Part shown: positions 3,469-30,060 of the stretch, in pieces
How the letters are laid out: the number at the start of each line of letters is the position of its first letter
Numbering within the stretch: position 1 is the first letter of the stretch
Assembly: GCA_020440915.1 (NCBI GenBank)
Contig: JAGRNE010000001.1
Span: forward strand, 1-47,075
DNA: 47,075 nt
Direction of reading: 5' to 3'
Source of the DNA: Leptospiraceae bacterium
GTDB lineage: Bacteria; Spirochaetota; Leptospiria; Leptospirales; Leptonemataceae
Made by a program: the position numbers and the translations under genes
Notes under the pieces: model-generated
What the model was told of the DNA's origin: nothing
The model's input: the letters and a program-made list of their open reading frames with translations, nothing else
Databases searched by the model: none

Positions 3469-4659
3469 ATGTCAGCCCGGGTTCAGAAAAAAATCGACGC
3501 CTACCGTAAAGATAAAAAGGAACAGCAGGATTTCCTGGAGAAATGCCGCTCCATACCTGTGGAGGCTATCCTCTGGCCGGATCAGTATAGCAGCCAATTT
3601 CCGGCTGAGTACCTGATCAAGAAAGGAAAGAAGCAATTACCGTATCCGCTACTTGAAAATGAGGATCGGTTGAAGGTTTTGCAGGGTCTTTTTCATCACT
3701 GGAATGGGGCCGATGCAAGTAGTCCCGAACATCCTCTGGTGCTTTGCTATTATCTAAATGAATTCCAGAAGCAGTTTCGTCCGGTAAAGAAGAAAACCGG
3801 CACCGCCCTGCAACGGGCTACCCGGGCTGTGCTGAGCGAAAAGAAAGGCAAGAAAAAGGCGGCCAGCGCCGCCGAGATTCGCAAGCAGGAACGGGAAAAA
3901 GAGAAAGAAAAGAATTATAAAAAGCTCCAGACCCTGAAGAACAAGCTCTCTGTAGCGAAAGAACTCAAGAAAGCGGAGTCTTCCGAAATCCAGTGGGCCA
4001 TTTTTCTTACACTCCGGGACCTGGTGCGTGAAAGGGACGAGCTCATCGAGGGAACCCATGAGCTCCGGGCAAATCGCGTCCGGGATGTTCAGACGACCGA
4101 CAAGGAATTGAAGAAACGCCTGGAAGAGGTGCTCGAAGAAAGCGAGGATCTTCGATCTCAGCTGAAGAGAGAAACCACGCGAGCAGATCTTCTGGAAGAA
4201 GAAGTGCAGCGCCTGGCAGAACAGATCATATCATCTCCTACCACCATCATTACACGCGGTGATCCTTCGGAGCTGGAGGGTTTGAAGCAGGAATATAATC
4301 TGATTTCCCAGAAATACGATGCCCTGGTTAGCAAGAATATCGACCTTTCCAACAGACTGAATCGAATTGATCATGCCGCCCGGCTGGAAGAGGTGCTGGA
4401 CAGCATTCGAGATCGTGTGAATGGCATCATTCGGTCCGGAGTGTTCAAGGAAGAAATTCTACTTTCGCGGATCGGCGGTGAGGTGGAGCAACTGCAGCGA
4501 GCCAGAATTTATCTTGGCCGAGCTCTTTTTGATATGGGCATGCTATACCTTCGCATGGGCAAAAAGGATGCCGCTTTCCAGGAGTTGCGCGCCGCGCGAG
4601 AACTGGGAGTGGAGGATCCAGAAGCGGACAGATTCCTGGAATCGGTGAGTCGTCGCTGA
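3469..4659 (+). CDS. Hypothetical coiled-coil protein with K/E-rich centre and TPR-like C-terminus
   Basis: 396-aa ORF with GGAG 9 nt upstream of the ATG. Long charged heptad-like stretch ([22 protein letters not shown]...). C-terminal [32 protein letters not shown] resembles a TPR repeat. I recognise no family. Confidence 0.6.
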
Positions 4660-4696
4660 ATTCAGCCAGCGGTTAGCATCAGCCAGCAACCCATTT

Positions 4697-5146
4697 ATGC
4701 GAGCCCTGATTCAGAGAGTGCTGGAAGCTTCTGTTTCCGTAGACGGTAACATTGTTTCCTCCATTGGGCCGGGAATGCTGATCTTTTTGGGCGCCATGCA
4801 GGATGACAGCGAAAGGATTGCCTGCGACCTGGCGGGCCGAATCCAGAAGTTTCGCATCTTCGAAGACGACTCAGGAAAAATGAATCTCTCTATTGCTGAT
4901 GTTGCCGGCCAGGCCCTGGTTGTGTCCCAGTTCACTCTTTGCGCAGATCTGGCGCGGGGAAATAGGCCTTCCTTTGGTCCGGCGGCTGAGCCCGAAAAGG
5001 CGGAATCCCTTTACCGAGCCTTTATTGCGGAAATGGCAGGGGCCGGGATCACCGTCCGATCCGGAATCTTCGGTGCCGATATGAAGGTGAGTCTGGTGAA
5101 CGATGGGCCGGTGACTTTCATTTTGGAAGAGCCCCGAAAGCGCTGA
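4697..5146 (+). CDS. dtd: D-aminoacyl-tRNA deacylase
   Basis: 149 aa. Starts MRALIQRV, with the SQFTL motif and C-terminal NDGPVTF motif typical of Dtd. Confidence 0.95.
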
Positions 5147-5267
5147 AGGTCCTGCATCGCCAGGCTACGGCAGATCCAGGATGGGCATCCCGGTACGGGC
5201 AGGAATCAGCCGCAGCCGTCAGAACATGCGTCCGGAGTCAAATCCGTATAACCGCAATCGCGCGGAA

Positions 5268-6152
5268 CTAGGCTGCGCTTTCCTTTCTTTTTACATCCAC
5301 GGAAACATGGACTTTGTGCTTTCCGCCTCCAAAGAGTACGCCCCGCAGAGGGCTAACATCCTGATAGTCCCGACCGACGGCTGCCTGAATGTACTCATGA
5401 GTTCGGGCTTTGCCGTTTGTGGGGTCCAGATCATACCATCCCAGCCCAGGAACGTACACCGATACCCATGCATGGCTGGCATCGGCTCCCTGAAGCCGGG
5501 GTTGTCCGGGAGGGGGATAGGTTTCAATGTAACCGCTTACGTACCGGCAAGGTAGGCCCAGGCTTCGCAGTGCGGCCAGAAAGATGTGGCTAAAATCCTG
5601 GCAGACACCTTTTCGCATGGCCGCCACTTCATGTAGCGGAGTGAGTATGGTAGTGGCGCCGGATTCGTATTCGAACTCATTGTAGAGGCGCAAACAGAAA
5701 TCGGTGGAGGCCTCCAGAATGGGCCGACCTGGCAAAAAATCCTGCCTGGCGAGTTCTGCGAATTCTGCGCCGGTAGGGACAAAACGGGAAGGCAGAGTGT
5801 ACTGGATGATTTCCAGTTCCTCGGGTTGGATGGCACGCCGAATGGAGTCTCGGACCGTTTCATACGGCGGGGATTCGGTGTCCGGAAAAAGCGGGTCTTC
5901 AGTGAAAACATCGGTGGTGCTGACGAACTCTATATGCGAATGGGGTTGTTCAATGGCGAAATAATGAATGGCGTTGCCGAAGTAATCCTTTCTTCTGTTT
6001 CTTGCTGCAGGGGATGGATCGCAACTCAAAGAGAAGCTCCGAACGGTCTGAATATGGCTGTCCTGAGGCTCCATCAGCGCCAGATTCTGGCAGAGCGATA
6101 CAGTCTCTTCGTAGTCGTAGCGAGAGATATGAGTAACAATATACTCAGGCAC
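5268..6152 (-). CDS. Transglutaminase-family protein (Bact_transglu_N plus transglutaminase core)
   Basis: N-terminus HISRYDYEE is typical of the family. Catalytic Cys context GVCQDFSHIF, His ASHAWVSVY, Asp DLDPTN. Overlaps the upstream gene by 8 nt. Confidence 0.9.
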   Translation of the reverse strand: MPEYIVTHISRYDYEETVSLCQNLALMEPQDSHIQTVRSFSLSCDPSPAARNRRKDYFGNAIHYFAIEQPHSHIEFVSTTDVFTEDPLFPDTESPPYETVRDSIRRAIQPEELEIIQYTLPSRFVPTGAEFAELARQDFLPGRPILEASTDFCLRLYNEFEYESGATTILTPLHEVAAMRKGVCQDFSHIFLAALRSLGLPCRYVSGYIETYPPPGQPRLQGADASHAWVSVYVPGLGWYDLDPTNGKARTHEYIQAAVGRDYQDVSPLRGVLFGGGKHKVHVSVDVKRKESAA

Positions 6153-8625
6153 CCAGGTCCTCCATTTGCTGGCTTTTTTCCTGGTACTGGAAGTAACGAT
6201 CGCTTATGGCATCGCTCAATGCGAAGGTAAGCTTCTGACATTCTAGAGAGAAGGACATCAGGCGATCCGGAAGCAGAGGGCCGTCCGCAGCAAAGAAGCT
6301 ATCAATCTCGGTAAGGTGCACTCTGGAATAGAGCTCCAGGGCCAGCTTTCGCTCCCTGGATTTGTCCGCGCTTTCTACTCCGGGCAACTCTTCGCTCATG
6401 GAATACATCTCATCCACCTGAAAGACCAGGGAGCGCGGATTGGTGCGGTCAAAAAGCAGGATATCGAGAACGCTTCGTGCATCCATGCGACTGCGGTACC
6501 TGCGCCGGTAAGTGATTCCGATATCATTGATCCGAAGTATGGCATCCAGGAAATCCCACCAGTCCAGCGGAGCAGACCTGGAAAGTGAGTATATGAGTCG
6601 TAGCAGAAAGAGCGCCCTTTCCAGCCTTCGTCCCATACGAGGAAAGAAGTAGGATGCCTCCCTGGACATGTTCTCCGACAGATGGCCGGTAAGCGAAGTT
6701 AGTAGGAGGATAATCTGAAAAAGGACTTCCGAGACTTCCATCATATCATCTCTGCGCAAGAAATCCGCAATTTCTTCCAGGCCCGAGATGACTCTTCGCG
6801 TATCTTCGGAAAGGCGGTCCCGAATTCGGCGGCCCGACTGCACCAGGGCAGTCAGATCATGGGCCATGGAACCTGGATCGGCGCTGCGAATGAGCATGAA
6901 GTTAAGCATCTCGGAATTCTGGTCTGGACCGGGGCTGCCGCTGACTTCCGAGAGAATTTCTGTGAGTGTGCTTTGAAGGGCCGAAGGTCCTGTCTGGTCG
7001 GTATTGATCTCCAGCACCATTCGCAAGAATCGACACTGGTTTTCCGCTCTTTCGCCGTAGCGCGCCATCCAGAACAGATTGTCCGCCACCCGGCCTGGAA
7101 GGCCAATACCTTTGCGAAAGATCTCTCCGGTTTCGGCGGCTGCAGAAAGCAGGGTTTCCTGTTTCTGGGGTTCGCTGGCCAGAATCCATATATCTTTGCT
7201 GAGCGCTCCGGTCTGATTGGTTATCACCAGATCCTGGAGATTGGCATTAAATCGCGCCAGACCTCCTGGAAGGACGATGTAGCCAGAATCGGATGCTGCG
7301 GCAAAAGTGCGATAGATGCCCCGGGCCGCCACCAGTTGCCCATTCTGAAACACAGGGCAGCTGCATCCGGTTAGAATTTCCTGGGCAACGTAGTCGAAAG
7401 GGGCCGAAAGTACGCGTTGCCAGAGTTCTTCGCGTTCGGACTCTTCCATGGTATTCAGGAAGTAGCCCTCTTCGCCCATGCGGCGAATGCACGGCTTGAG
7501 AACCAGATCGGTGCGGTACCGTACCTGCTGCAGATGCGATTCGTCGCCCAGCCAGTAGGTGCGTGCATTGGGCAGAATTAATTCCTCACCCAGAAAATGC
7601 TGACTGAGGTCGGGCAGGTAAGCAAGCAATGCGCGATCTTCCAGAATGCCTGATCCTGGAGGATTTAGAACGCTTACGGTTCCTGCACGAACGCATTGCA
7701 GAAGCCCTGGAACGCCCAGCAAGGAATCTCCCCGGAGTTCCAGGGAATCCAGAAAAGCATCATCCACCCGGCGAAAGACAATGTCTACCTGCTGGAAACC
7801 CTCCACGGTCTTCAGATAGAGCTTTTGCTCTCGAACGGTTAGATCGTCGGCCTGGGCCAGGGGAAAGCCAAGATACGAAGATAGATACGCATGTTCAAAG
7901 TAGGTTTCGTTGCCCGGTCCGGGCGAAAGCAGAATGGTGAGCGGATCTTTTTTGCGAATCTGCGCTTTTCGAACGAGGGTTCTTCGCAACGTGCGAAAAT
8001 AGGTGGCCAGACGATGAACCTGGCTGTCCCGATAGATGCTGGGAAGTACCCTGGAAAGTACAATGCGATTCTCCAGACTGTAGCCGGAGCCAGACGGCGC
8101 CTGGATTCGGTCACCCAGGGCCACAAACTGCCCCCGGGAATCCCGGCTGACGTCGGTGGCAATGTAAGCCAGGGAATTTCCCCTGGCAGAGATCATATCG
8201 TGGCAGGGCCGTAAAAAAGCCGGAGAGCGAAACAAAAGCTCTGCGGGCAAAACTCTTTCCTGGATACAGCTTTTTTGAGTGTAAATGTCGGAGAGGATCA
8301 GGTCCAGAAGCTCGGCTCGCTGGATCAATCCTCGCTCCAGGGGCGACCATTCATCGCTGGGGATGATTACTGGCAGGAGATCCAGAGGCCAGGTGCGGTC
8401 CAGCCCGCCGGGACTGCCGTAGATGCTGTAGGTTACGCCGTTTTCTTTGAGAAGCCTGTAGGCCTCCCTTCTTCTTTGTTCCAGGCGCTCCTGCCCCAGA
8501 GCATCCAGGCTGGAGATCAGAAAATCGTAATGAGGACGAATCAATCCCCGGTGGAGCAATTCATCATGTATTCCGGCCACGGGTTCGTAGCCGGAAAGAA
8601 GCTGGCGCTCCAGGGTCTCCATCAA
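6145..8625 (-). CDS. Fusion protein: circularly permuted ATP-grasp (type 2) domain plus alpha-E domain
   Basis: 826 aa. The N-terminal half is visibly paralogous to the stand-alone ATP-grasp at 12846-14270 (VDIVFRRVDDAFLDSLELRGDSLLGVPGLLQCVRAGTVSVLNPPGSG vs [47 protein letters not shown]). The C-terminal half resembles the alpha-E protein (NLFWMARYGERAEN vs SVYWMNRYIERAEN). ATGA overlap with the upstream gene. Confidence 0.85.
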   Translation of the reverse strand: MMETLERQLLSGYEPVAGIHDELLHRGLIRPHYDFLISSLDALGQERLEQRRREAYRLLKENGVTYSIYGSPGGLDRTWPLDLLPVIIPSDEWSPLERGLIQRAELLDLILSDIYTQKSCIQERVLPAELLFRSPAFLRPCHDMISARGNSLAYIATDVSRDSRGQFVALGDRIQAPSGSGYSLENRIVLSRVLPSIYRDSQVHRLATYFRTLRRTLVRKAQIRKKDPLTILLSPGPGNETYFEHAYLSSYLGFPLAQADDLTVREQKLYLKTVEGFQQVDIVFRRVDDAFLDSLELRGDSLLGVPGLLQCVRAGTVSVLNPPGSGILEDRALLAYLPDLSQHFLGEELILPNARTYWLGDESHLQQVRYRTDLVLKPCIRRMGEEGYFLNTMEESEREELWQRVLSAPFDYVAQEILTGCSCPVFQNGQLVAARGIYRTFAAASDSGYIVLPGGLARFNANLQDLVITNQTGALSKDIWILASEPQKQETLLSAAAETGEIFRKGIGLPGRVADNLFWMARYGERAENQCRFLRMVLEINTDQTGPSALQSTLTEILSEVSGSPGPDQNSEMLNFMLIRSADPGSMAHDLTALVQSGRRIRDRLSEDTRRVISGLEEIADFLRRDDMMEVSEVLFQIILLLTSLTGHLSENMSREASYFFPRMGRRLERALFLLRLIYSLSRSAPLDWWDFLDAILRINDIGITYRRRYRSRMDARSVLDILLFDRTNPRSLVFQVDEMYSMSEELPGVESADKSRERKLALELYSRVHLTEIDSFFAADGPLLPDRLMSFSLECQKLTFALSDAISDRYFQYQEKSQQMEDLGA

Positions 8626-11600
8626 GGGCCAGAGAACTCCCTGTCAGATTGGATGGCCAGCCTTAAATCCAGAGTGCAGGGAAACTCTGGATTGGCAACC
8701 GGCTTAGGGGCCGGCCCATGGGACGATCCAAATTCACCGGCCTGAAACCGGCTGATTCTTCGGCTTTCCGCTTCCAGCGCATTGACGGGCAGGGTGTCGT
8801 AGGCTCGACCTCCTGGATGGGAGACATGGTAGGTGCAGCCAGTTACATACCTTTCGTTATATGTGTCGAAAACGGAGAAGACCAGGGGATTGTGAGGCTT
8901 GATATGCGGATGAAGGGTGGATGCAGGATTCCATGCTTTGAAGCGAATTCCGGCCACCTGGATGTTTTGATGCCGGCGCAGAGGAACGAGCGCTCCATTG
9001 CAGGCCACCTGGTAGCGACCCGCAGCATCTCCTTCCAATATGACCTGCATTCGTTCCGTGGCAGAATCCACAGCCCGGGATGTGCCGCCGGTATGCGCTT
9101 CCTCGCCCAGGACGTTCCAGGGCTCCAGGGCCATGCGAAGCTCCAGGCGAATTCCCGGGTAAAGAGTTTCTCCATACAGAGGAAAGCGAAATTCGAAGAA
9201 AGGCTCGAACATCTCCATTGTGAAGTCAAAACCTTCCAATTTCAGATCGTCCAGCACCCTTTGCAGATCCTCTCGAACATAGTGAGGAAGCATAAAACGA
9301 TCTCTTAGATCCAGGCCCCATCGAACCAGACGGGGTTCCGGCGGTTTTTCCCTTACAAAGCAAAGTATGGCGCCGATCAAAGCCTGCTGCACTGCGCTCA
9401 TCTTCCAGTGCGGAGGCATTTCAAAACCGCGTAGTTCCAGCAATCCTCGCCGGCCGCCCAGAGAAGCGGGATCGTACATCTTATCTATGCAAAACTCCGC
9501 GCGATGGGTATTGCCGGTAAGGTCCGTAAGATGGTTGCGTAGCAGTCTATCTATCAAATACGGAGGACACTTTTCGTCTTCGCGTTTGTACAATTCGATA
9601 AGCGCAAGTTCCAGATCATACAGAGTATCCATCCTGGCCTCATCTACGCGTGGCGCCTGGCTGGTAGGACCAATAAAAAGGCCGGAGAAAAGATAAGAAA
9701 GGGAAGGATGTTTTTGCCAGTAAACAAGAAGGGCCGGCAGCAGGGCTGGGAAGCGCAGAAAAGGGCTCTCCAATGTGCTTCGGGCACCCAGGGTGATATG
9801 GTTTCCGCCGCCGGTAGCTGCGGGGCGGCCATCCATCAGGAATTTTTGCGTTATGAGTCCTTCCGCTCGCGCGGCCTCGTAAAGCTTTCGCGTAAGATCC
9901 GCCGCTTCCTGAAGACTTTCCGAAGGCTGTAGATTCGCTTCAATGACTCCAGGATCTGGAGTGATGGAAAAATGGGTAAGTGCAGGATGCGCTGGCGGTG
10001 GATGCCCTTCCCATTCGTAGCGCGCCGGACTCTCGGAAAGGCATTTTTCCAGGTGTGCGATCAGGCTGAGATGGCTGACCGTGGAAGAAGGGGGAGGCAG
10101 AAAGATTTTCAGTGTTTCCTCCCGGATCTCCACAACCAGCGCCACCCGCAGGGGCCAGCGACCTTCATCATCTTTGAGAGTATAATTTCCATCCCTGGCA
10201 ATCAGGTGTTCTGGATCTGGCAATCGCGTGGATTGTTCCGTAGGATCTTCCATGTAGACGCTGCGAAAGCCATCTCCCAGCGAAGACAGGGGTAAACGCA
10301 ATCCGGCCGGAGAGTCTCCCGGAAGCAGAAATAGATGACTGCGCCGGTTTTTCCACAGAGAAGAGGTCCAGCGAGACTTTTGCGGATCAAACGCCAGCGG
10401 AAGGACGAAGGCAGATGGTTCGGCCAGATCCTTCTCCAGCAACATGAGCAGTCGATTTCTTTCCAGCGCTTCGAAGCTTTCCAGGTCCTTGATTCGCCTG
10501 GCGCCTTCGGGTAAGTTTGCCTGGCCACGAAGAGCCTCCAGCGGATCTTCATGAAGCGGTTGCACAAATGCCCGGTCCAGTCCCAGTCGGTTTGCCAGGG
10601 ATTCAAGAAGCTCTTTGGCCTGGCCTGCTGTAGCTGGTTTTCGCTCCAGACTTTCCGAGTAAAGGGCGCTTAATGGTTCTCCATCCAGTCGCCAGTGAGC
10701 AAAGTAAGCCCAGCGCGGCAGAGGCTCGCCAGGGTACCATTTTCCCTGTCCGGAAAGAAAGAGCGGAGCCGGAAGCGCCAGATTTTGAACAAGACGCTTG
10801 CGTAACCTTTGCGCAAAATCTCTCTTCTTTTTGTCTCCGCCCGGGGCCATGGCCTGATAGTTCCATTCCGGCCCATCCAGGTCTTCGTCGGAAACAAAGG
10901 TGGGTTCTCCGCCCATGGTAAGTCGCAAATCCAGTTCCTTTAGCTTACGATCCACGGCGGGTACGATCCGCTGAAAACGTTGGAAAACGCTATCGCTGTA
11001 AGGCCTGGTGGTGCGCGGGCTTTCGGCGATCCGTTCGATTTTCATCTCAAAATGAAGATCGGACTGGCAGATGCCGGTGGATCCGGTCACCGGGGCTGCT
11101 CTGGAGGGTTCAGCGGCTGCAAAAAGGGGGATGTGGCCTTCGCCAGTAAGCAGGCCTGACGTGGCGTCCAGGCCAATCCATCCTGCTCCGGGCAGATAAA
11201 CTTCGGTCCATGCATGCAGATCTGTGAAATCCTCTTCCGGACCTGCCGGTCCTTTGCGAGGCGTTTCGTCTGCCTTTAGCTGAATCAAGTAGCCGGAACA
11301 GAACCGGCTGGCCAGTCCCAGATGTCGCAGAATATGCATTAGAAGAAAAGCGGAATCCCGGCAGGAACCCTGGCCCCGGTCGATGGTCTCGGTGCAGCTT
11401 TGAATGCCGGGTTCCATGCGAATGATGTAGCTGACTCGCCTGGCTACAAATTGATTGATGGCCACAAGCATGTCTACCGTGCTCAGCTCCGGTCGAATGA
11501 TGTCCTTCTTGATGTGTTGCACCCAGGCCAGTAGTTCCGGTTCGGTAACATCGCTTCGCAGGTATATGGACAGGTCGTCCTCGAGATCCGCGGGATAGGG

Positions 11601-11909
11601 AAATGGATAACGGTTGGCTTCGGGCTCCAGGAAAAAGTCAAAAGGATTAATGGTGCGAAGCTCCACCACCATATCCACCTGGATCTTCAGTTCCCAGCTT
11701 CGTTCAGGAAAAACCAGTCTGGCCAAAAAATTGCCAGCAGGGTCCTGTTGCCAGTTAAGAAAGTGCTCCGGGCTTATTTTGAGGGAGTACGAATGTATGG
11801 CGGCCCGGGCATGAGGGGCGGGGCGCAGGCGAATGGAATGAGGATGTATCTGGACCGGGCGGTCAAAACGGTAATGGGTAAGATGATGAAGGGAAACCTT
11901 AATCGACAT
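8622..11909 (-). CDS. Large transglutaminase-like protein (Bact_transglu_N plus transglutaminase core plus DUF2126-like C-terminal region)
   Basis: 1095 aa. N-terminus LHHLTHYRFDRPV. Catalytic Cys GSCRDSAFLL, His DLHAWTEVY, Asp GLDATSG. The long C-terminal region is typical of the DUF2126 architecture. Confidence 0.85.
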   Translation of the reverse strand: MSIKVSLHHLTHYRFDRPVQIHPHSIRLRPAPHARAAIHSYSLKISPEHFLNWQQDPAGNFLARLVFPERSWELKIQVDMVVELRTINPFDFFLEPEANRYPFPYPADLEDDLSIYLRSDVTEPELLAWVQHIKKDIIRPELSTVDMLVAINQFVARRVSYIIRMEPGIQSCTETIDRGQGSCRDSAFLLMHILRHLGLASRFCSGYLIQLKADETPRKGPAGPEEDFTDLHAWTEVYLPGAGWIGLDATSGLLTGEGHIPLFAAAEPSRAAPVTGSTGICQSDLHFEMKIERIAESPRTTRPYSDSVFQRFQRIVPAVDRKLKELDLRLTMGGEPTFVSDEDLDGPEWNYQAMAPGGDKKKRDFAQRLRKRLVQNLALPAPLFLSGQGKWYPGEPLPRWAYFAHWRLDGEPLSALYSESLERKPATAGQAKELLESLANRLGLDRAFVQPLHEDPLEALRGQANLPEGARRIKDLESFEALERNRLLMLLEKDLAEPSAFVLPLAFDPQKSRWTSSLWKNRRSHLFLLPGDSPAGLRLPLSSLGDGFRSVYMEDPTEQSTRLPDPEHLIARDGNYTLKDDEGRWPLRVALVVEIREETLKIFLPPPSSTVSHLSLIAHLEKCLSESPARYEWEGHPPPAHPALTHFSITPDPGVIEANLQPSESLQEAADLTRKLYEAARAEGLITQKFLMDGRPAATGGGNHITLGARSTLESPFLRFPALLPALLVYWQKHPSLSYLFSGLFIGPTSQAPRVDEARMDTLYDLELALIELYKREDEKCPPYLIDRLLRNHLTDLTGNTHRAEFCIDKMYDPASLGGRRGLLELRGFEMPPHWKMSAVQQALIGAILCFVREKPPEPRLVRWGLDLRDRFMLPHYVREDLQRVLDDLKLEGFDFTMEMFEPFFEFRFPLYGETLYPGIRLELRMALEPWNVLGEEAHTGGTSRAVDSATERMQVILEGDAAGRYQVACNGALVPLRRHQNIQVAGIRFKAWNPASTLHPHIKPHNPLVFSVFDTYNERYVTGCTYHVSHPGGRAYDTLPVNALEAESRRISRFQAGEFGSSHGPAPKPVANPEFPCTLDLRLAIQSDREFSGP

Positions 11910-11911
11910 GT

Positions 11912-12844
11912 TTATACCGCGAAGTATCGTTCATTGATGGTCTCTCCTATGCGATTCAACCGTGTCTGTACCTTATCCAGATACTCATGCATTCCTTTGT
12001 CGAAAATTGCATCGATATCTGTGTAATTCAAATCAGAAAGCAGCATGCCGGTCCATCGCTCCGCTTCATTGGAAAATGAGGGGCCTGTATTTCCGCTGAT
12101 GGATCGAAGGTTTCGGTCCAGTTCTGAAATGCAGTAGATCAGCGCACGGGGGAAATCCCGGTTCAAGATAAGGAATTCCGCAATGTTTTTGGGCGTTACC
12201 TTCTGGTAAGAACGGTTGAACATTTCATGAGCGCTGGCGGACTTGAGCAGGGAAAGCCACTGAATCAAGTCCAGTGTGGTGCCAACATCCTGAATGCTGG
12301 GAAGCAAAATAAAGTATTTCATGTCCAGGATGCGAGTCGTCTTGTCCGCCCTCTCCAGGTATCGCCCGGTGAGAGCAAAGCGATGGACCTCGTCGTGGGA
12401 AAGCGTGGCATCCATGGTGCCGTAAAACAGCAGGCATGTCCGGCGAACCCTGGTGTAGAAGCGTTCCAGTTCCTCCAGATGCGATGTTTGCTGATTTTTT
12501 ACCTCCAGGTAGAGTTCATTGAGCACCTGCCACAGTTCGGTGCTAATATTTTCCCGGATGGTGCGAGCGTTCTCTCTAGCCCTGCGAATGCAAGAAAGAA
12601 TGGAGCTGGAGTTCTCCGCATCGAAAGTCATGAAATGAATGACATTTTCCCTGTTATACTCTCCGTATCGCTCTTCAAAGTCGGTGTTGTCGCCGGTAGT
12701 GGTTACCATAGGTCCCCATTGATTGGCGGTTTCCGGAGAGTCCAGAGAGAGCTGAAAGTTCACGTCCATGAAGCGGCAGTAGTTTTCTGCCCTTTCGATG
12801 TAGCGGTTCATCCAGTAGACGGAGTCTGCTACGCGGCTCAGCAT
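11912..12844 (-). CDS. Alpha-E domain protein (DUF403)
   Basis: 310 aa. Starts MLSRVADSVYWMNRYIERAENYCR, the hallmark of alpha-E proteins. 2 nt separate its stop (11912-11914) from the next gene's ATG (11909), and 1 nt separates its ATG (12844) from the upstream stop (12846-12848). Confidence 0.85.
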   Translation of the reverse strand: MLSRVADSVYWMNRYIERAENYCRFMDVNFQLSLDSPETANQWGPMVTTTGDNTDFEERYGEYNRENVIHFMTFDAENSSSILSCIRRARENARTIRENISTELWQVLNELYLEVKNQQTSHLEELERFYTRVRRTCLLFYGTMDATLSHDEVHRFALTGRYLERADKTTRILDMKYFILLPSIQDVGTTLDLIQWLSLLKSASAHEMFNRSYQKVTPKNIAEFLILNRDFPRALIYCISELDRNLRSISGNTGPSFSNEAERWTGMLLSDLNYTDIDAIFDKGMHEYLDKVQTRLNRIGETINERYFAV

Positions 12845-12845
12845 A

Positions 12846-14270
12846 TCAGGACCCCATCACCCAGGTATCCTTGGTTCCTCCTCCCTGAGAAGAGTTCACC
12901 ACCAGCGAATCCCGGGGCAGCGCCACCCTGGTCAATCCGCCGGGCATAACATAGATGTCGTCGGAGAAAAGTATAAATGGTCGCAAGTCCACGTGCCGGC
13001 CTTCTATGCCATCGTCTGTTACCGTGGGTACCCGCGAAAGGCTCATCACTGGCTGCGCGATGAAGTCCCGAGGCGCATGGCGCACTTTTTCTCGAAACTC
13101 CTGGACCTGTTTCTTTGAGGCGCTGGGGCCGATGAGCATACCGTAGCCGCCGGCTCCATTCGCTTCCTTCACCACCAGTTCTTCCATGTTCTCCAGGACA
13201 TACTTCAGATCGCTAGGCCGAGAGCAAAGATAGGTGTCGACGTTCGGGATGATGGGCTCTTCGTCCAGATAGAAGCGGATCATATCCGGAACAAAGGTAT
13301 AGATTACTTTGTCGTCCGCGACCCCGGTTCCCGGGGCATTGAGCAGGGCCACATTCCCTTTCCGATAGGCTTCAAAAAGACCTGGAACGCCCAGAACGGA
13401 ATCCGGGAGAAAGGCTTCCGGATCCAGGAAAGCGTCGTCAATACGCCGGTAGATTACATCTACTGGCTGTAGTCCGCGGGTGGTGCGCATGTATACCCGA
13501 TCATCATGAACCACAAGATCCGTGCCGCCCACCAGGGGAAGCCCCATCTTCTGAGCCAGAAAGGAGTGCTCGTAATAGGCCGAATTGTAGATACCTGGCG
13601 TAAGCACGACGCAGGAAGGGGCAGGGGCATCGCTGAGGTACTCCATGGTGCCTCGCAGACGGATAGGGTAATCGTAGATGCTGCGAATCCTGTGGCTGCG
13701 AAAGAGCTCGGGAAAAGTGCGCTTCATTACTTCCCGGTTCTCCAGAACATAGGAGACGCCTGAGGGGCAGCGAAGATTGTCTTCCAGGACGCGAAATGTG
13801 CCTTCAGAGTCGCGGATCAAATCCGTGCCGCTAACGTGAATCCAGATATCCCGGGGTGGGGCAAAACCTACCATCTGTTTGAGATAGTTGGGGCTGGAGT
13901 ATACCACTTCCGGATCGACTATCTTCTCTTTCAGTATTCTGGCCGGACCATACACATCTTTGAGGAATTCGTTCAGCGCTCTTGCTCGCTGCTGCAGTCC
14001 TTTTTCCAGAGGAGCCCAGTCCCCTGGAGTAATAACCCGTGGAATAATATCGAAAGGGATGATCCTTTCTTCGGCCCTGGCATCGCCATAAACGCTAAAC
14101 GTAATTCCCATGGAGATCAGGGCATGCTCGGCCTCATCTCTTCTATGAAGTAATTCAGTATCGGTCATGGATTCGATCTGTGTCCGCAACGGGCCGTACC
14201 CGGGCCGGGCTTCGCCATCGGCAGCGAACATTTCATCGAAGAAGACCCCTGTGCTGTAGTTCTTTAGCAT
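12846..14270 (-). CDS. Circularly permuted ATP-grasp protein (DUF404/DUF407 type)
   Basis: Strong family-like sequence from MLKNYSTGVFFDEMF... I chose the start at ATG 14270 (474 aa, GGA-rich stretch upstream). The ORF is open in frame up to 14393, but that extension is a basic low-complexity stretch. Confidence 0.85.
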   Translation of the reverse strand: MLKNYSTGVFFDEMFAADGEARPGYGPLRTQIESMTDTELLHRRDEAEHALISMGITFSVYGDARAEERIIPFDIIPRVITPGDWAPLEKGLQQRARALNEFLKDVYGPARILKEKIVDPEVVYSSPNYLKQMVGFAPPRDIWIHVSGTDLIRDSEGTFRVLEDNLRCPSGVSYVLENREVMKRTFPELFRSHRIRSIYDYPIRLRGTMEYLSDAPAPSCVVLTPGIYNSAYYEHSFLAQKMGLPLVGGTDLVVHDDRVYMRTTRGLQPVDVIYRRIDDAFLDPEAFLPDSVLGVPGLFEAYRKGNVALLNAPGTGVADDKVIYTFVPDMIRFYLDEEPIIPNVDTYLCSRPSDLKYVLENMEELVVKEANGAGGYGMLIGPSASKKQVQEFREKVRHAPRDFIAQPVMSLSRVPTVTDDGIEGRHVDLRPFILFSDDIYVMPGGLTRVALPRDSLVVNSSQGGGTKDTWVMGS

Positions 14271-14580
14271 CCTGCTTCCAATCCTTGACTTAATCCCATT
14301 CCCGATCATTGCAAGGGAAATTCTACGCGAAATTCGCTGAGCTTTACCCCGGACCTGATAGAATAGGCGTCGTTTTGCTATGTTTTTATGCATTCTCGGC
14401 CTGGGCCGACCTGCATAGCTTCATTTGCAATTTGCGTACCCCGCAGGCGGGCGGGCCCGGGCCTGGTTTTCCAAGAGGCGGGGCCCCGGCCACCTCGCAT
14501 CCGGGTCCAGAGGGCCTGCTTTCTCCGATGTTTGGCCCAATCTGCGGGGGCGAAAGGCTCTGCCTTGCCTCCGACGAAGC

Positions 14581-14605
14581 AATCTGCCTGCCAGGCAGGC
14601 AGATT
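14581..14605. promoter_or_regulatory. Perfect 12-bp-arm inverted repeat (candidate operator or RNA hairpin) in the divergent control region
   Basis: AATCTGCCTGCC-A-GGCAGGCAGATT read directly from the sequence. It ends 47 nt upstream of the M3 peptidase ATG (14653). No T-run follows on either strand. Confidence 0.35.
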
Positions 14606-14652
14606 TCAAAAGAGGTTGCCTGGTGTCCTGCCCGGAGACTTTATTGAAGCGT

Positions 14653-16755
14653 ATGACCAACAAAGAGAAAGCCCCTTCTTCCCCGTCCACTGCGTCTTCG
14701 AAGCCCAATCCGCTGATCCAGCGCATTTGCGGGCCTAACGACACCATCCCCTTTGAACAGATCCAGCCCGAGGATTTTCTTCCCGCTCTGGCGCACTTCA
14801 AGCAGGTGGCGGAGCAAAATGTGCAATCTATTGTTGCGAATGCTGATCCGGATTTTGTGAGCACCATCCAGGCCCTGGAGACTTCTGCAGAGGAGCTCAA
14901 CTATGTCGCTTCTGTCTATTATGTGCTCTTTAGCGCGCATGCTACGGAAGGCATTCAAAAAATTGCCGGCGAGGTTTCCACTTTTCTGGCCGGCTTTTCC
15001 AGCGACATTACGCTGAACAAAGAGCTCTTTGAAAAGGTTCGCGCGGTCCATGAAAGTAAGAAAGGAGTGGAGAACTCGGAACAGCAAAGACTGCTGGACG
15101 AAACCTATCTGGACTTTGTGCGAAACGGCGCTTCGTTGCAAGGCGCTGATCGAGAAGCCCTTCGCGAAATTGATCAAAAGCTGGCGGCCCTGGCTCCTAA
15201 ATTCTCCGAGCACTTGCTCAAGGCTACCAATCACTTCAAACTACACATAACAAACCGGGAAGATCTGCTAGGATTGCCGGACATGGTGATGGAGCAGGGA
15301 GCGGCCACGGCTGCTGCCGAAGGCAAGGAGGGTTGGGTATTTACTCTTCAGTACCCGGACTTCATGCCCTTTATGACCTATGCAGAGAATGCCGAACTGC
15401 GCAAGAAAATGTATCTGGCCTTTCGAAGTCGAGGGATGGGCGAAGCAGCCGCCGCCTATGGACAGCCGGCGGATACCGATAATCAACCGGTGGTTCTGGA
15501 AATCCTGAGGCTGCGCGAAGAGCGTGCTCGACTGCTGGGGTTTGAAAACCATGCCTGCTACATCCTGGAAAAGCGGATGGCCCGTAGCCCGGAAAATGTT
15601 CAGTCTTTCCTGGATCGTCTGGTAGAAGTGAGTCTGCCGGCGGCCAGAAAAGAGCAGCAGGAGTTGAGCGATTTCGCCAAGGAGCTGGGCTACGATTCGG
15701 TGCAACCCTACGACATCCGCTTTTTGGCCGAGAAGTTGAAGCAGAAGATCCATAAATTCGATTCGGAAGAGTTGCGTCCGTACTTTCCTCTGGATCGCGT
15801 CATGAAGGGGCTCTTTGGTACAGCCGAAAAACTCTACGGTTTGTCCTTCAAGAAGTTGGAGGGGATAGAAGTCTATCATCCGGAAGTCGAGGTCTATTCC
15901 GTGAGCGATTCGTCCGGAGCGGACGTGGGCCTATTCTATGTAGATCTGTTTCCCCGGGATACCAAGAAAAGCGGCGCATGGATGACCTCCTTTCGCGAGC
16001 AAGGGCTCTTCCGCGGCGAAGTGCGGCGCCCTCACATTGGCATCGTCTGTAACTTTACGCGGCCTGGAAAGGACAGGCCATCGTTACTCTCCTATGATGA
16101 AGTGCGGACGCTTTTTCATGAATTTGGACACGCTTTGCACGGCCTGCTTTCCCGCTGCACTTTCAGCAGTCTGGCAGGAACCAATGTGTACTGGGACTTT
16201 GTAGAGTTGCCTTCGCAGTTTATGGAAAACTGGGTGCGAAAGAAGGAAGGCCTGGATCTCTTTGCCGCCCATTATCAGACGGGAGAAAAGATACCTGCGG
16301 ATCTGGTCGAAAAGATGCAGGCTGCTGAAACATTCCGTGCAGGCTGGAACTTCATGACTCAATTGAACTATGCCACTCTGGATATGAAGTTTCACACAAC
16401 TCCGGCCGCCGAAATCCAGGATGTGGAAGAATTTGAGCGAAAGGCCACCGAAAGGACAAATCTGGTGGAGGATCTGCCCAATACCTGCTTTGCCACCGGC
16501 TTTGGTCATATCTTTGCCGGCGGGTATTCAGCGGGCTACTATTCCTACAAGTGGGCGGAGATCCTGGAAGCGGACGCTTTTGAGCTCTTTGAAGAGAAAG
16601 GCCTTTTTGATTCGGACAGCGCCAGCCGCTTTCGCGGCTTTATCCTGGAAAAAGGGAACACCGAGGATCCATCCGTACTTTATCGCAACTTTCGAGGGCG
16701 TGATCCGGATCCGGATGCTCTGTTGCGACGCGAAGGTTTGCTGAAGTCGGCCTGA
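14653..16755 (+). CDS. M3-family zinc metallopeptidase (peptidyl-dipeptidase Dcp / oligopeptidase A type)
   Basis: HEFGHALH zinc motif and family-typical length (700 aa from ATG 14653). The N-terminus NPLIQ...PFEQIQPEDFLPAL resembles Dcp/PrlC. The upstream 76 codons of the ORF are Arg/Gly-rich intergenic read-through. Confidence 0.9.
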   Translation: MTNKEKAPSSPSTASSKPNPLIQRICGPNDTIPFEQIQPEDFLPALAHFKQVAEQNVQSIVANADPDFVSTIQALETSAEELNYVASVYYVLFSAHATEGIQKIAGEVSTFLAGFSSDITLNKELFEKVRAVHESKKGVENSEQQRLLDETYLDFVRNGASLQGADREALREIDQKLAALAPKFSEHLLKATNHFKLHITNREDLLGLPDMVMEQGAATAAAEGKEGWVFTLQYPDFMPFMTYAENAELRKKMYLAFRSRGMGEAAAAYGQPADTDNQPVVLEILRLREERARLLGFENHACYILEKRMARSPENVQSFLDRLVEVSLPAARKEQQELSDFAKELGYDSVQPYDIRFLAEKLKQKIHKFDSEELRPYFPLDRVMKGLFGTAEKLYGLSFKKLEGIEVYHPEVEVYSVSDSSGADVGLFYVDLFPRDTKKSGAWMTSFREQGLFRGEVRRPHIGIVCNFTRPGKDRPSLLSYDEVRTLFHEFGHALHGLLSRCTFSSLAGTNVYWDFVELPSQFMENWVRKKEGLDLFAAHYQTGEKIPADLVEKMQAAETFRAGWNFMTQLNYATLDMKFHTTPAAEIQDVEEFERKATERTNLVEDLPNTCFATGFGHIFAGGYSAGYYSYKWAEILEADAFELFEEKGLFDSDSASRFRGFILEKGNTEDPSVLYRNFRGRDPDPDALLRREGLLKSA

Positions 16756-16817: not shown

Positions 16818-17255
16818 TCAGGGCATATCTGTGCAGTCGCCTGAAAACGGTGCGCTCTCCCAGAGGCCATCCGCATCGCTGTGGATATCGTTCCAGGAGA
16901 GTTCTTCGGTCTCGTCGATGGCTCTTTCAAAAGGCCTGTATTCTTTGTAAACGCATACCGAGCCGCAGAATTGCGGAGCTCCCACAGGCTCGCCTCCTTT
17001 CTCTTTGGTCCACCGGATGCGAATGGTATCCCCGTCTATATTCCATGCGCCAAAACGAACATGAGGGCTCAGTTCAGAGATTCTGTATTGCACCCGGACC
17101 TGCCCGTTGGAACAGAAAGCGAATGCATCCTCACTACTTGCCACTGTGCGAACCAGAATATGTCCGGCAGGCGGAGCAGAGGTCTCCTTCTTGGCGGATG
17201 CGCAGCCAGGCACAAAGATTACAGAAAGCAGCGATAGCCAGAGCGCTCGATTCAT
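16818..17255 (-). CDS. Hypothetical lipoprotein
   Basis: Signal peptide with lipobox-like MNRALWLSLLSVIFVPGC. 145 aa. I recognise no family. Confidence 0.65.
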   Translation of the reverse strand: MNRALWLSLLSVIFVPGCASAKKETSAPPAGHILVRTVASSEDAFAFCSNGQVRVQYRISELSPHVRFGAWNIDGDTIRIRWTKEKGGEPVGAPQFCGSVCVYKEYRPFERAIDETEELSWNDIHSDADGLWESAPFSGDCTDMP

Positions 17256-17365: not shown

Positions 17366-17450
17366 GGCAGACAGTAGGTCTGCCAGGCGCGTAGCGCCGG
17401 AGCAATTCTGACGGGAGAAGCGATACAGGAGGTATCGTTTCGAGCGTGCC
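17366..17450 (-). repeat. Structured intergenic repeat, copy A (inverted relative to the copies at 32355 and 32461)
   Basis: The reverse complement of 17411-17450 (GGCACGCTCGAAACGATACCTCCTGTATCGCTTCTCCCGT) matches 32355-32394 at 37/40 positions. It contains three hairpins: 17417-17441, 17386-17398 and 17366-17384. It starts within the stop codon of the gene at 17450. Confidence 0.7.
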
Positions 17451-18394
17451 TATATATGTATACCGTTGACGGCGTCGGAAATCCGGCCGTTTACTTTGAT
17501 GATGAAGTAATTGGTGTAGTTGGTAATATCTTTGCGGAACTTGGTGACGTATCGCACGGCACGGGTAAGGTCCAGTTCAAATAGTCGTGATTCCATTTCG
17601 CGCAGAGATTCTTCCATCTCAATAAGGATATGCTTGAGATCCCGGAATTTCTGATTGGCTTCGATCAGAGCTGGCTTTTCCAGGCTCTGAGTGGAGATAT
17701 CCACGGGAAAGGATGAAAGTATATCTTCGCTGGCTTCGGCGAATTCGCCGGATATCTCTTCTATTTCCTTGAGGTATTCGGATTCCAGTTCGCTATGGTA
17801 CTCTTGAAGAGTGTACTGATGAACTCGATCTCGCATTTTGTAGAACTGGCCAATAATGGAGCCTCGAATCAATTTGAGGCCAAAGTGCTCTCTGCGCAGG
17901 GTCTTCAGAGAAAAGAAGTCGCGACCCAGATAGATCTTATCTTTATAGTTTTCCGGGAGGTCGGAGGCCGAAATGGTGTAGAGCTTTACTTCGTATCTCT
18001 GATCTTCGCCTTCCACCGGAACAAAGCGGGAAATCAGAACATGGCCGTTGGAAGCAATGTAATAGGAGTTGGTCTCCAGAAGGGCGGAGTACAGGCTCAA
18101 ATCGTAGAGCAGGTACCATTTCAGCTTATCCAGGGTTTCCGTTCCGGATGCAAGAAGCTCCTCCAGCCTTTCCAGTTCTTCTGAACCAGCAGGCCCGGTA
18201 GTCATGTAGCTCAGGTCCGGAGTGACCAGGACCCGGCATTGTTCCAGGAAGAATTCCAGATACAGATTCTCGAGTACGCTCTTCTGAAAGGAGTCCAGCT
18301 CGAAGTGCGGGACCCGAATCATCTCTACCCTGGTGATGTCTTCCAATGCTTGCATAGGTTTCTGTTCTTTAGAGCCTGCCAATCCTACGGTCAA
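17450..18394 (-). CDS. Hypothetical protein encoded directly downstream of queA
   Basis: 314-aa ORF from TTG 18394 (4-nt overlap with the queA stop), or 301 aa from ATG 18355. Acidic, helix-rich C-terminal half. I recognise no family. Confidence 0.6.
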   Translation of the reverse strand: MTVGLAGSKEQKPMQALEDITRVEMIRVPHFELDSFQKSVLENLYLEFFLEQCRVLVTPDLSYMTTGPAGSEELERLEELLASGTETLDKLKWYLLYDLSLYSALLETNSYYIASNGHVLISRFVPVEGEDQRYEVKLYTISASDLPENYKDKIYLGRDFFSLKTLRREHFGLKLIRGSIIGQFYKMRDRVHQYTLQEYHSELESEYLKEIEEISGEFAEASEDILSSFPVDISTQSLEKPALIEANQKFRDLKHILIEMEESLREMESRLFELDLTRAVRYVTKFRKDITNYTNYFIIKVNGRISDAVNGIHI

Positions 18395-28722: not shown

Positions 28723-29562
28723 CTACTTGCGGGACTTCTTTGCTTTCTTTTTTGCTGTTCGAGGGGCGTTCTTGCGAACCGCCTTTTTTGTGCTGGAAGG
28801 GCGCGCCTGAACCTGAGGTCTTGCAACGGCCCCTTCCGGTTCCGGGCCTTGGGCGGCCATATGAGTGGCGGTTACCGGGAATGGATGTTCCCGATTCATG
28901 TGCTCGATGATGGTTTCTCCGACGTCTCGGCTAAAGAGCAAGTTCATTCGACCCGGCCAGTCCAGGATTAGATCCCGTCCCTGTCCGAAACGCGCCAGAT
29001 TGCCTGGAACGATCCATTCATCTTTCCAGGGGACAAAAGGAGAAAAGGATGGAAAGAGCAGAGCATTCATTCGATTGATCAGCAAATATTCGCTTCCAGG
29101 CGTCATGTCATGAAAGGCGGGGATGAAAGGAAGCCAGTTCAACAGTGTAGTCCCATGAAACGGGGCGCCCATGGTTACCAGGTACTTGATTCTCTGGCGC
29201 CCTGGATCGGGCAGGCCGAGCGAAGCCAGACCGCCGGATCCATGACAGAGCAGCGTGGCCTGATGCACATTCCATTTCTCCAGGTTGGACGACAGAGTCC
29301 GGGCATGTACCCGAAATCCTTTGAGAGGATTAAAGCCGGAATGAATGTAAACGCTGTAGCCATTTTTCTTCAGTCTTTGCATCAGAAGAAAATAAAACAG
29401 TGGCGAGGTGAGCAGATCCGTGACGATGATAATAGTGCCCCGTCTTCCTCGTTTGAAAGCGGGCAGGGGAAAGGGCAGCAGGAGGAAAATGAGCTGTAAT
29501 ATAAGCAGCAGAGTTTCCAGAGTCCAGCCAAGAATCAATCTCAATCGAGACACAGGCTCCAT
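28723..29562 (-). CDS. Membrane-anchored alpha/beta-hydrolase (lipase-like) with polybasic C-terminal tail
   Basis: N-terminal TM (LLLILQLIFLLLPFPL). Nucleophile-elbow-like LLCHGSGGLASL. C-terminal tail AVRKNAPRTAKKKAKKSRK. I chose the start at ATG 29562 because longer versions overlap the divergent gene at 29605. Confidence 0.65.
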   Translation of the reverse strand: MEPVSRLRLILGWTLETLLLILQLIFLLLPFPLPAFKRGRRGTIIIVTDLLTSPLFYFLLMQRLKKNGYSVYIHSGFNPLKGFRVHARTLSSNLEKWNVHQATLLCHGSGGLASLGLPDPGRQRIKYLVTMGAPFHGTTLLNWLPFIPAFHDMTPGSEYLLINRMNALLFPSFSPFVPWKDEWIVPGNLARFGQGRDLILDWPGRMNLLFSRDVGETIIEHMNREHPFPVTATHMAAQGPEPEGAVARPQVQARPSSTKKAVRKNAPRTAKKKAKKSRK

Positions 29563-29604
29563 GTAGGACTCAAAACCATTCTGTGTCGCAATTAGCAACA
29601 AGTT

Positions 29605-30060
29605 ATGAACTCCACCGTGCATTTTATACTGAAAGGAATGATGGATCGGCCCATGATCGAATCCATTCTGGAAGAAATGGCTGCTCGACCCTACATCCAC
29701 TACCGGGCGGACGCTGCATCTCTGTATTCAGTGGATTTTGCTTCTGCCTGTCTTCTCAAAGACCAGGTGGAAAGAATGGAAGGCCAGCTTGCTATTTTGA
29801 ATCTGAATGCAGAATGTAGAGTGGCGCTGCAATATTGTGGCTGGAATCTCCATGACGGTGTGGCGCTGGCCACCCGCGCCCCGGCATCTTCCGAAAGCGA
29901 AAACGTCATCTCTGCATCGCAGGCCCGCTGTCCGGAATGCGGCAAGTCTTTACAGGTTGAAGGCGCCGGGCTTTACGGTTGCCCGGTATGCGGCTGTCGA
30001 TTTCATTCGGATATCCGTGGCAGGACCACTCCCTATGAATCGCTGGGTATTTCGAAATAG
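29605..30060 (+). CDS. STAS-like domain fused to a C-terminal CxxC...CxxC zinc ribbon (hypothetical)
   Basis: 151 aa. The N-terminal about 90 aa has a STAS-like pattern (FILKG...ADAASLYSVDFASACLL...GQLAILNLNAECRVALQYCG). C-terminal CPECGKSLQVEGAGLYGCPVCG. Confidence 0.5.
   Translation: MNSTVHFILKGMMDRPMIESILEEMAARPYIHYRADAASLYSVDFASACLLKDQVERMEGQLAILNLNAECRVALQYCGWNLHDGVALATRAPASSESENVISASQARCPECGKSLQVEGAGLYGCPVCGCRFHSDIRGRTTPYESLGISK

Follow-up and report, generated by a model that had tools for sequence, protein, structure and literature searches.

A block of five minus-strand genes at positions 5268-14270 of the Leptospiraceae bacterium contig JAGRNE010000001.1 (assembly GCA_020440915.1) is a member of the cpATP-grasp/Alpha-E/transglutaminase-like/glutamine synthetase (GS)-like ligase system predicted by Iyer and Aravind (2008, 2009), where cpATP-grasp stands for a circularly permuted ATP-grasp ligase. 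The window referred to below is the whole 47,075-nucleotide (nt) stretch of this contig that was analysed, and the genes are lettered A to E in their order on the minus strand. We anticipate that the locus is a chromosomal copy of a widespread cytosolic system, organized as a sigma-54 operon that is induced by nitrogen limitation and that runs a ligase/amidase cycle on a small molecule. For this explanation as a whole we estimate a probability of about 0.5.

In the proposed mechanism, two ATP-dependent carboxylate-amine ligases would form amide bonds; protein A, in concert with the Alpha-E protein B, would be one, and the DUF2126 domain of C the other. The bonds could then be hydrolysed or transamidated by two thiol amidases of the papain-like kind, E and the N-terminal domain of C. 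D would be a catalytically dead duplicate of A and B with a binding or scaffolding role for a C-D-E sub-module. As the substrate class we prefer small peptides or amine conjugates of the gamma-glutamyl type, like glutathione or glutathionylspermidine. With them the enzymes would scavenge nitrogen in a cycle of capture and release driven by ATP, and would not act on a ribosomally made protein tag.

The sequence and neighbourhood features of the predicted system are found at the locus: a cpATP-grasp protein, an Alpha-E domain adjacent or fused to it, a thiol peptidase with a Cys-His-Asp triad, a fusion protein of the Rv2566 type, and a neighbourhood that is conserved across distant lineages. The four families are present in operonic linkage, and the peptidase triads are intact. 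Unlike the system as predicted, the window has no gene for the proteasome-like protein Anbu, and it has two ATP-grasp/Alpha-E pairs, one of them fused and, judging from its residues, catalytically degenerate. This copy is an ordinary member of the predicted system and adds no new component. What is new here is a sigma-54 element with its enrichment across the family, the loss of Mg-ATP residues from D, and an Alpha-E model without a structural relative in the PDB. A sequence-only reading that preceded our analysis had put the locus forward as the strongest candidate in the window for an undescribed system; it is instead a named and widely distributed one, and the regulation of a homologue is known (PMC5491218). 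Its interest lies in the open question that concerns the whole family and in these refinements, rather than in this window.

The family of protein C, with Rv2566 of Mycobacterium tuberculosis as its type member, was described by Iyer et al. 2008 (Biol Direct) as a transglutaminase-like domain fused to a carboxylate-amine ligase, and was predicted to synthesize glutathione-like peptides (PMC2588565). The 2009 prediction in Mol Biosyst, in the form in which later papers quote it, is of a peptide-ligase or tagging system of ATP-grasp, Alpha-E, transglutaminase-like peptidase and Anbu (PMC6376114, PMC3495828, PMC5666114). The sequence-only reading had noted that comparative genomics predicted peptide synthesis or tagging, in agreement with these papers (PMC2588565, PMC3495828, PMC5666114), and had stated that no substrate or product has been shown; none is defined for the module in the full-text literature searched or in the PDB. 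The module is among the most conserved bacterial gene sets still without a known reaction, and homologues occur in nitrogen-limitation regulons of Burkholderia and Pseudomonas as well as in M. tuberculosis. Solving its chemistry would fill a gap in bacterial nitrogen physiology and might explain Anbu. Our analysis narrows the focus to A and C as candidate ligases, to D as a putative binding subunit, and to phenotypes under conditions that induce sigma-54/NtrC.

Gene content and probable operon structure

The five genes span 9003 nt, or 19% of the window (the sequence-only reading had estimated about 20%), and long minus-strand open reading frames (ORFs) fill 5268-14393. Gene A (12846-14270) encodes a cpATP-grasp ligase of 474 amino acids (aa; Pfam CP_ATPgrasp_2, E-value 2e-165), and gene B (11912-12844) encodes an Alpha-E protein of 310 aa (Pfam Alpha-E, 4e-102). 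The product of gene C (8622-11909) has 1095 aa and the Pfam domains Bact_transglu_N, Transglut_core and DUF2126, the last with an E-value of 1.5e-296. Gene D encodes a fusion of the ATP-grasp and Alpha-E families (CP_ATPgrasp_2, 5e-128; Alpha-E, 2e-61) and can be read from an ATG (6145-8622, 825 aa) or from a TTG (6145-8625, 826 aa). Gene E (5268-6152) starts with GTG and encodes a 294-aa protein with Bact_transglu_N and Transglut_core. Profile searches recovered every family, and with them the gene order and architectures given in the sequence-only reading. Because the domain E-values are very low and the same gene set recurs in other phyla, the observation is far beyond chance. NCBIfam gave no match for any of the five proteins.

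The longest ORF for gene A covers 12846-14393. The start is probably the ATG at 14270 rather than this maximum, because the 474 aa it gives equal the length of orthologues and of PDB entry 3N6X, and because the ribosome-binding region is conserved in relatives. As read from the sequence, the A/B junction is TGA-T-ATG (a 1-nt gap) and the B/C junction is TAA-AC-ATG (a 2-nt gap), C and D overlap at TGATG by 1 nt with the ATG start or by 4 nt with the TTG start, and D and E overlap by 8 nt at GTGCCTGA. The sequence-only reading had noted this tight packing, which is consistent with the single transcript that we infer for the five genes. Scans for sigma-70-like promoters and for terminators gave matches no commoner than in shuffled sequence. 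A riboswitch is unlikely, since a search of 4600-14900 against Rfam is empty at E<=1 and the operon's 5' leader has no better folding than shuffled sequence (z -0.34).

Predicted ligases and their Alpha-E partners

Coverage of the module in the PDB consists of two structural-genomics entries only, 3N6X and 3ISR, and there is no entry for DUF2126 or Alpha-E. Protein A matches 3N6X over its whole length (E-value 1.7e-159) and carries the canonical ATP-grasp Mg hairpin TDLIRDSEGTFRVLEDNLRCPSG (R/D...E-x-N), in exact register with E270/N272 of Escherichia coli DdlB and E330/N332 of GspS. The key residues of A (D150, E163-x-N165, K321 and the GGYG at 374-377) are invariant in 36 of 36 A-type orthologues. 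On the strength of these residues A is predicted to be a catalytically competent ligase.

Protein B, presumed to be the obligate partner of A, is about 53% identical to cyanobacterial homologues and has two conserved ER motifs; many Arg residues are invariant in Alpha-E. The AlphaFold model of B is all-alpha with 15 helices and has a predicted local distance difference test score (pLDDT) of 88.8. A fold search of the PDB with Alpha-E gave no match at E<0.001 and none better than an E-value of 0.2 and a template-modelling (TM) score of 0.2. The best matches, Borrelia CspZ and 14-3-3 (TM about 0.2), are not credible and were rejected. As modelled, Alpha-E is a confidently predicted fold without a structural relative in the PDB.

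D is 34% identical to A and 22% identical to B. The presence of both domains in this one protein implies that ATP-grasp and Alpha-E proteins interact physically. At the positions of the ATP-grasp Glu and Asn, D has G171 and R173. In the 53 D-type orthologues the Mg-ligand Glu is never kept (Ala, Gly, Ser or Asp instead), the Asn has become Arg in 48, and neither K321 nor the GGYG loop remains. Both B and the Alpha-E half of D retain the ER motifs, and across phyla D diverges faster than A. Thus, the ATP-grasp half of D is probably not a ligase, and we predict that D is a non-catalytic paralogue of A and B that acts as an adaptor or scaffold. With the canonical Mg-ATP residues missing from D in each of the 53 species examined, A and the DUF2126 domain of C are left as the predicted competent ligases. 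The sequence-only reading had described ATP-dependent ligases paired with thiol peptidases. The pairing holds, but the ATP-grasp domain of D is without Mg-ATP ligands, and the putative second ligase, DUF2126, had gone uncounted.

Transglutaminase-like domains and the DUF2126 region

Protein C consists of a transglutaminase-like thiol peptidase (residues 1 to about 280) and a DUF2126 part (about 281-1095). The motifs GSCRDS, HAWTEVY and GLDATSG are present, and among 119 homologues C183 and H232 never vary, with D248 conserved to at least 90%. Protein E contains GVCQDF, HAWVSVY and DLDPTN, and based on a motif search its triad is kept in 53 of 58 orthologues. Both Cys/His/Asp triads are intact, as had been proposed from the letters of the sequence. 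E matches PDB 3ISR with an E-value of 4e-12, and Foldseek matches the N-terminal domain of C to the same entry (2e-14). A signal peptide was not found in the sequence of E.

About 180 columns are invariant among the 119 homologues of C, and the DUF2126 domain is dense in invariant motifs of acidic, basic and Gly-rich character. In Foldseek the C-region of the C model (pLDDT 86.7) weakly matches GS-family enzymes (probability 0.9-0.97, E-value about 1e-2), which lends weak fold support to DUF2126 as a putative GS-like carboxylate-amine ligase. Three loops at residues 691-700, 936-944 and 1032-1048 (DGR..TGGGNH, EE..R and HPGGR..P.N..EAE.RR) are invariant or nearly so in the 119 homologues, yet the model has its lowest confidence there; these segments may bind a partner or form mobile flaps of the active site.

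In a Leptonemataceae metagenome-assembled genome (MAG; L008), the closest genome-level relative, the C and D homologues form one uninterrupted open frame of 1934 aa (L008:9953-15754), with the junction ...TLDLRLAGEVQDLLSDPYMETLQKQL... This frame is either a natural fusion or an assembly indel and, if real, would be Rosetta-stone evidence for a C:D complex. Together, the ATP-grasp/Alpha-E fusion in D and the single C-D frame argue for physical A:B and C:D contacts.

A sigma-54-type promoter element and probable nitrogen control

Upstream of gene A we identified a sigma-54-type -24/-12 element, GGGTACGCAAATTGCA, at 14426-14441 on the operon strand (minus), which ends 156 nt upstream of the start codon. 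Of the 12 specified positions of TGGCACG-N4-TTGCA it matches 10, including the GG and the GC. The element is the best-conserved block of an otherwise divergent intergenic region in L008 and in a relative from Tara (L001); it lies 156 nt from the start in L001 and 27 nt closer (129 nt) in L008. Across the family, sites with at least 9 of 12 matches precede 20 of 39 A-type genes, against 2.35 expected (P 1e-12); for C-type genes the count is 21 of 84, against 5.0 expected (P 9e-8). Internal genes, which serve as a built-in control, are at background (2/52, 0/38 and 6/58).

Data from homologues point the same way. In Burkholderia cenocepacia H111 the cluster I35_5080-83 is among the most strongly NtrC-/sigma-54-dependent clusters under nitrogen limitation (PMC5491218). 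Work cited in PMC5666114 found the Anbu operon up-regulated when Pseudomonas putida is limited for nitrogen, and the domains co-vary with urea-metabolism domains in marine metagenomes (PMC3597751). The operon is most likely driven from the sigma-54 promoter and, because of that promoter, induced by nitrogen limitation. Since the promoter enrichment agrees with the Burkholderia data, nitrogen-limitation control is the best-supported physiological statement on the locus.

The intergenic region between gene A and a divergent M3 oligopeptidase gene also contains a perfect palindrome at 14581-14605, AATCTGCCTGCC-N-GGCAGGCAGATT, with two 12-nt arms. Measured from the -24 element it is located 140-165 nt upstream, a distance that would suit an enhancer, and measured from the probable start of M3 it is 48-72 nt upstream; neither L001 nor L008 keeps the palindrome. 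It may serve the sigma-54 promoter as a binding site for an enhancer-binding protein, or it may instead be an operator of the M3 gene. A second sigma-54-like match at 14578-14593 is merely part of this palindrome. The M3 oligopeptidase ORF (14425-16755, plus strand) is over-extended at its 5' end: homology to relatives starts at the ATG at 14653, which is probably the true start, and the intergenic region from M3 to A is consequently about 380 nt. A link between the module and the M3 oligopeptidase was rejected, as the divergent pairing is seen only in L001 and L008 and reflects lineage-specific synteny.

Two sub-modules that recur across phyla

Homologues of C form at least 8000 clusters at 90% identity and 1727 representatives at 50% identity (E<=1e-30), and between phyla C is about 50% identical over about 1100 residues. 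A pattern scan that took one genome per species gave at least 584 confirmed relatives among 600 stretches. The module is not present in E. coli. Neighbourhoods were classified in 80 species. C-D-E occurs alone in 31 of the 80 loci, and clusters with Anbu, typically A-B-Anbu-C, account for 22, about 15 of these being A-B-Anbu-C without D-E. The colinear order A-B-C-D-E is found in about nine species: three Spirochaetota (L008, L009 and L086), a deltaproteobacterium (L025), two Marinobacter (L035 and L045), a member of the Burkholderiales (L040), Planctomicrobium (L070) and a member of the Cellvibrionales (L077). Marinobacter manganoxydans and Marinobacter sp. F3R08 are hosts with this order. 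The order thus occurs in Spirochaetota, Planctomycetota and several proteobacterial classes and covers at least five lineages at phylum or class level, and in several more loci A-B is nearby in another orientation. In Leptospira sarikeiensis (L004:13475-17106) A-B-C is split from D-E by inserted genes for an M75 peptidase and a TonB-dependent receptor, which lie between the C and D homologues.

Based on the C-D-E-only loci, the A-B-Anbu-C clusters and the split in L. sarikeiensis, the five genes represent two sub-modules, A-B(-C) and C-D-E, which can occur apart and are repeatedly found joined, and C is the hub that they have in common. The sequence-only reading had treated them as a single five-gene module; the survey shows that the set can be divided. 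Anbu itself is absent from the window, where a tblastn search with the L006 homologue finds nothing. In A-B-Anbu-C clusters (L006:8663-9984 and similar) a protein of about 174 aa without a Pfam match is encoded between Anbu and C and may be an additional accessory factor in this form of the system.

Substrate class and alternative explanations

With regard to the substrate, we put a small molecule at close to an even chance and prefer it to protein tagging. No Pup-like or other tag-sized ORF recurs beside the module: no small ORF family there is common to the lineages, and the sole clusters are alternative frames within Pseudomonas. Small molecules are the substrates of the closest relatives with a characterised function (GspS, the name that the depositors gave to 3N6X, and GS or gamma-glutamylmethylamide synthetase), and E. 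coli Gss sets a precedent for the union of a ligase with an amidase. The preference also draws on the glutathione-like peptide synthesis that Iyer et al. 2008 predicted for the Rv2566 family, and on the company that the module keeps with nitrogen-scavenging genes.

Several points weigh against the proposed nitrogen-scavenging cycle. Biochemistry on the family is limited to one datum, a basal ATPase activity in the ATP-grasp protein of Yersinia (PMC6376114). For DUF2126, the GS-like assignment comes from weak fold matches; profile and sequence comparison of the C family with PDB entries returned only transglutaminase-like entries, and an hhalign comparison with E. coli YbdK, a single-sequence target, gave no signal. 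The loss of E-x-N argues for the inactivity of D, short of proof. Sigma-54 matches in the window alone are not significant (8 against 4.4 expected), and there is no rpoN or ntrC gene within the window. The module has no consistent linkage to a transporter gene or an amine-catabolic gene. A protein or peptide-tag substrate would be favoured by the frequent linkage to Anbu elsewhere (22 of 80 loci in other genomes) and by the fact that transglutaminase folds typically act on proteins.

The five genes may not form one machine with a single product. Two autonomous systems could simply abut here, A-B (with C as a peptidase/ligase partner) and C-D-E, and we regard this as a serious contender that falls short of an even chance. 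It would account for the 31 loci with C-D-E alone, for the roughly 15 with A-B-Anbu-C and no D-E, for the two unrelated genes between C and D in L. sarikeiensis, and for the sigma-54 site that C-type genes often have of their own. However, in this genome B and C are 2 nt apart, C and D overlap and no internal promoter match is found; the colinear order turns up in five or more lineages of phylum or class rank, C and D share an open frame in L008, and C is common to both sub-modules. Tagging, which we hold at somewhat longer odds, is the proposal of Iyer et al. 2009 and of Zhang and Aravind 2012: the ligases would add amino acids or short peptides non-ribosomally, as tags, to side chains or C-termini of target proteins, as TTL, RimK and PafA do, and the peptidases would remove them, in the service of protein turnover and amino-acid recycling under nitrogen starvation. 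It is the published prediction as later papers give it (PMC6376114, PMC3495828, PMC5666114), and the GS-like ligases include the Pup ligase (PMC2588565). Homologues are linked to Anbu in those 22 loci, transglutaminase and papain folds usually act on proteins, and the many invariant Arg residues of Alpha-E could bind acidic tails. Control by nitrogen limitation also parallels the Pup-proteasome system, which has a role in nitrogen starvation. Against tagging stand the absence of a tag gene or conserved small ORF beside the module, the absence of Anbu from the window, pull-downs that found no complexes and an Anbu without peptidase activity (PMC6376114), and the 2008 analysis by the same authors, which favoured glutathione-like metabolites for the C family (PMC2588565). 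More doubtful is a specific form of this idea, a tag/de-tag machine induced by nitrogen starvation as a counterpart of tubulin glutamylation and pupylation, in which A with B, and the ligase domain of C, would write amino-acid tags on proteins, the two peptidases would erase them, and D would be a reader or adaptor for the tag; if it were true, Alpha-E would be a new fold that recognises acidic tags.

Two further explanations are very improbable. E, and perhaps C, might be an exported broad-specificity protease or virulence factor with unrelated ligase genes as neighbours, as claimed for Rv2569c, which was reported as an extracellular 'serine' protease that degrades casein, fibrinogen and E-cadherin (PMC11081392). 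Its activity was blocked by serine-protease inhibitors and not by E-64 or N-ethylmaleimide (PMC11081392), a profile at odds with the conserved Cys-His-Asp fold, and we consider the serine-protease claim disputed. Moreover, E has no signal peptide and comes from a free-living marine spirochaete, is translationally coupled to D, and is co-inherited with C-D in at least 31 species. As little can be said for a mobile secondary-metabolite cluster or an anti-phage defence island: ligase and peptidase gene sets do occur in peptide natural-product clusters, and one genomics paper lists the ATP-grasp/Alpha-E pair as a 'putative peptide enzymatic module', but PADLOC gives no matches for the five proteins, the flanks are housekeeping genes (metH, dtd, queA and the M3 peptidase gene) in synteny with relatives, the GC content equals that of the rest of the window, the roughly 50% identity across phyla is the pattern of a core enzyme and not of a fast-evolving locus, and there is no transporter, precursor-peptide or immunity gene.

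Comparison with related systems

The first two genes of the Anbu operon of Pseudomonas and Yersinia share Pfam architectures with A and B (PMC6376114, PMC5666114), and that operon is induced by nitrogen limitation according to the account given in PMC5666114. In contrast to it, the locus studied here lacks the proteasome-like subunit, has the 1095-aa C in place of a small transglutaminase-like protein, and has the D-E pair in addition. Structures of Anbu exist without detectable activity, and pull-downs found no complexes (PMC6376114). The B. cenocepacia H111 cluster I35_5080-5083 (BCAM1233-1236) has the same domain families, and its sigma-54/NtrC dependence matches the promoter element described above (PMC5491218). 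It has four genes and no fusion protein D, and regulation has been demonstrated experimentally there, whereas for the present operon it is deduced from the promoter.

In M. tuberculosis the system presumably consists of two sub-modules in separate loci (Rv2566/Rv2567/Rv2569c and Rv2411c-Rv2409c), with Rv2567 and Rv2411c as what we take to be the ATP-grasp homologues. A 2026 M. tuberculosis preprint calls Rv2567 and Rv2411c candidate enzymes with an ATP-binding domain, and lysates with either did not make gamma-aminobutyric acid (GABA)-trehalose. The C family is tied to this organism through its type member, Rv2566 (PMC2588565).

E. coli Gss follows the same logic as the proposed cycle, with an ATP-grasp-type synthetase joined to a papain-like thiol amidase that undoes the bond, and A shares the R/D...E-x-N Mg hairpin with Gss (GspS). 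Beyond this hairpin the A family has no detectable profile similarity to Gss (hhalign probability 0.1, with a single-sequence target), and neither GSP_synth nor CHAP has a Pfam match in the five proteins. Gss is also without an Alpha-E partner, and its amidase is a CHAP domain rather than a transglutaminase-like one. PafA and Dop are GS-fold carboxylate-amine ligases paired with a reversal activity, and the C family was found in the same survey (PMC2588565). Unlike that pair, the present locus has no Pup-like ORF and no Pup_ligase Pfam match, and its reversal enzyme would be a thiol peptidase.

Genomic context and other open reading frames

The operon is flanked by housekeeping genes, namely metH, a rhomboid gene, dtd, the divergent M3 oligopeptidase gene, queA and glycosyltransferase genes, which are syntenic with the closest relative, and the GC content of the window is the same inside the operon as outside. 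Because of these flanks, the matching GC content and the lack of defence-system or RNA-family matches, the locus is a native chromosomal operon and not an island. The nearest proteins are from uncultured marine Leptospirales: B is 97% identical to a protein of a Leptospiraceae MAG, and C is 76% identical to proteins of Spirochaetaceae and Leptonemataceae MAGs, Tara Oceans contigs among them. The host is an uncultured, free-living marine spirochaete.

Elsewhere in the window, five substantial ORFs are without a Pfam match: 3469-4659 and 29807-31435 on the plus strand, and 16818-17255, 17450-18394 and 28723-29700 on the minus strand. Those at 3469-4659, 16818-17255 and 17450-18394 have syntenic counterparts in L001 (394, 145 and 301 aa), likewise without a Pfam match, and at least these three are lineage-specific conserved hypothetical proteins.

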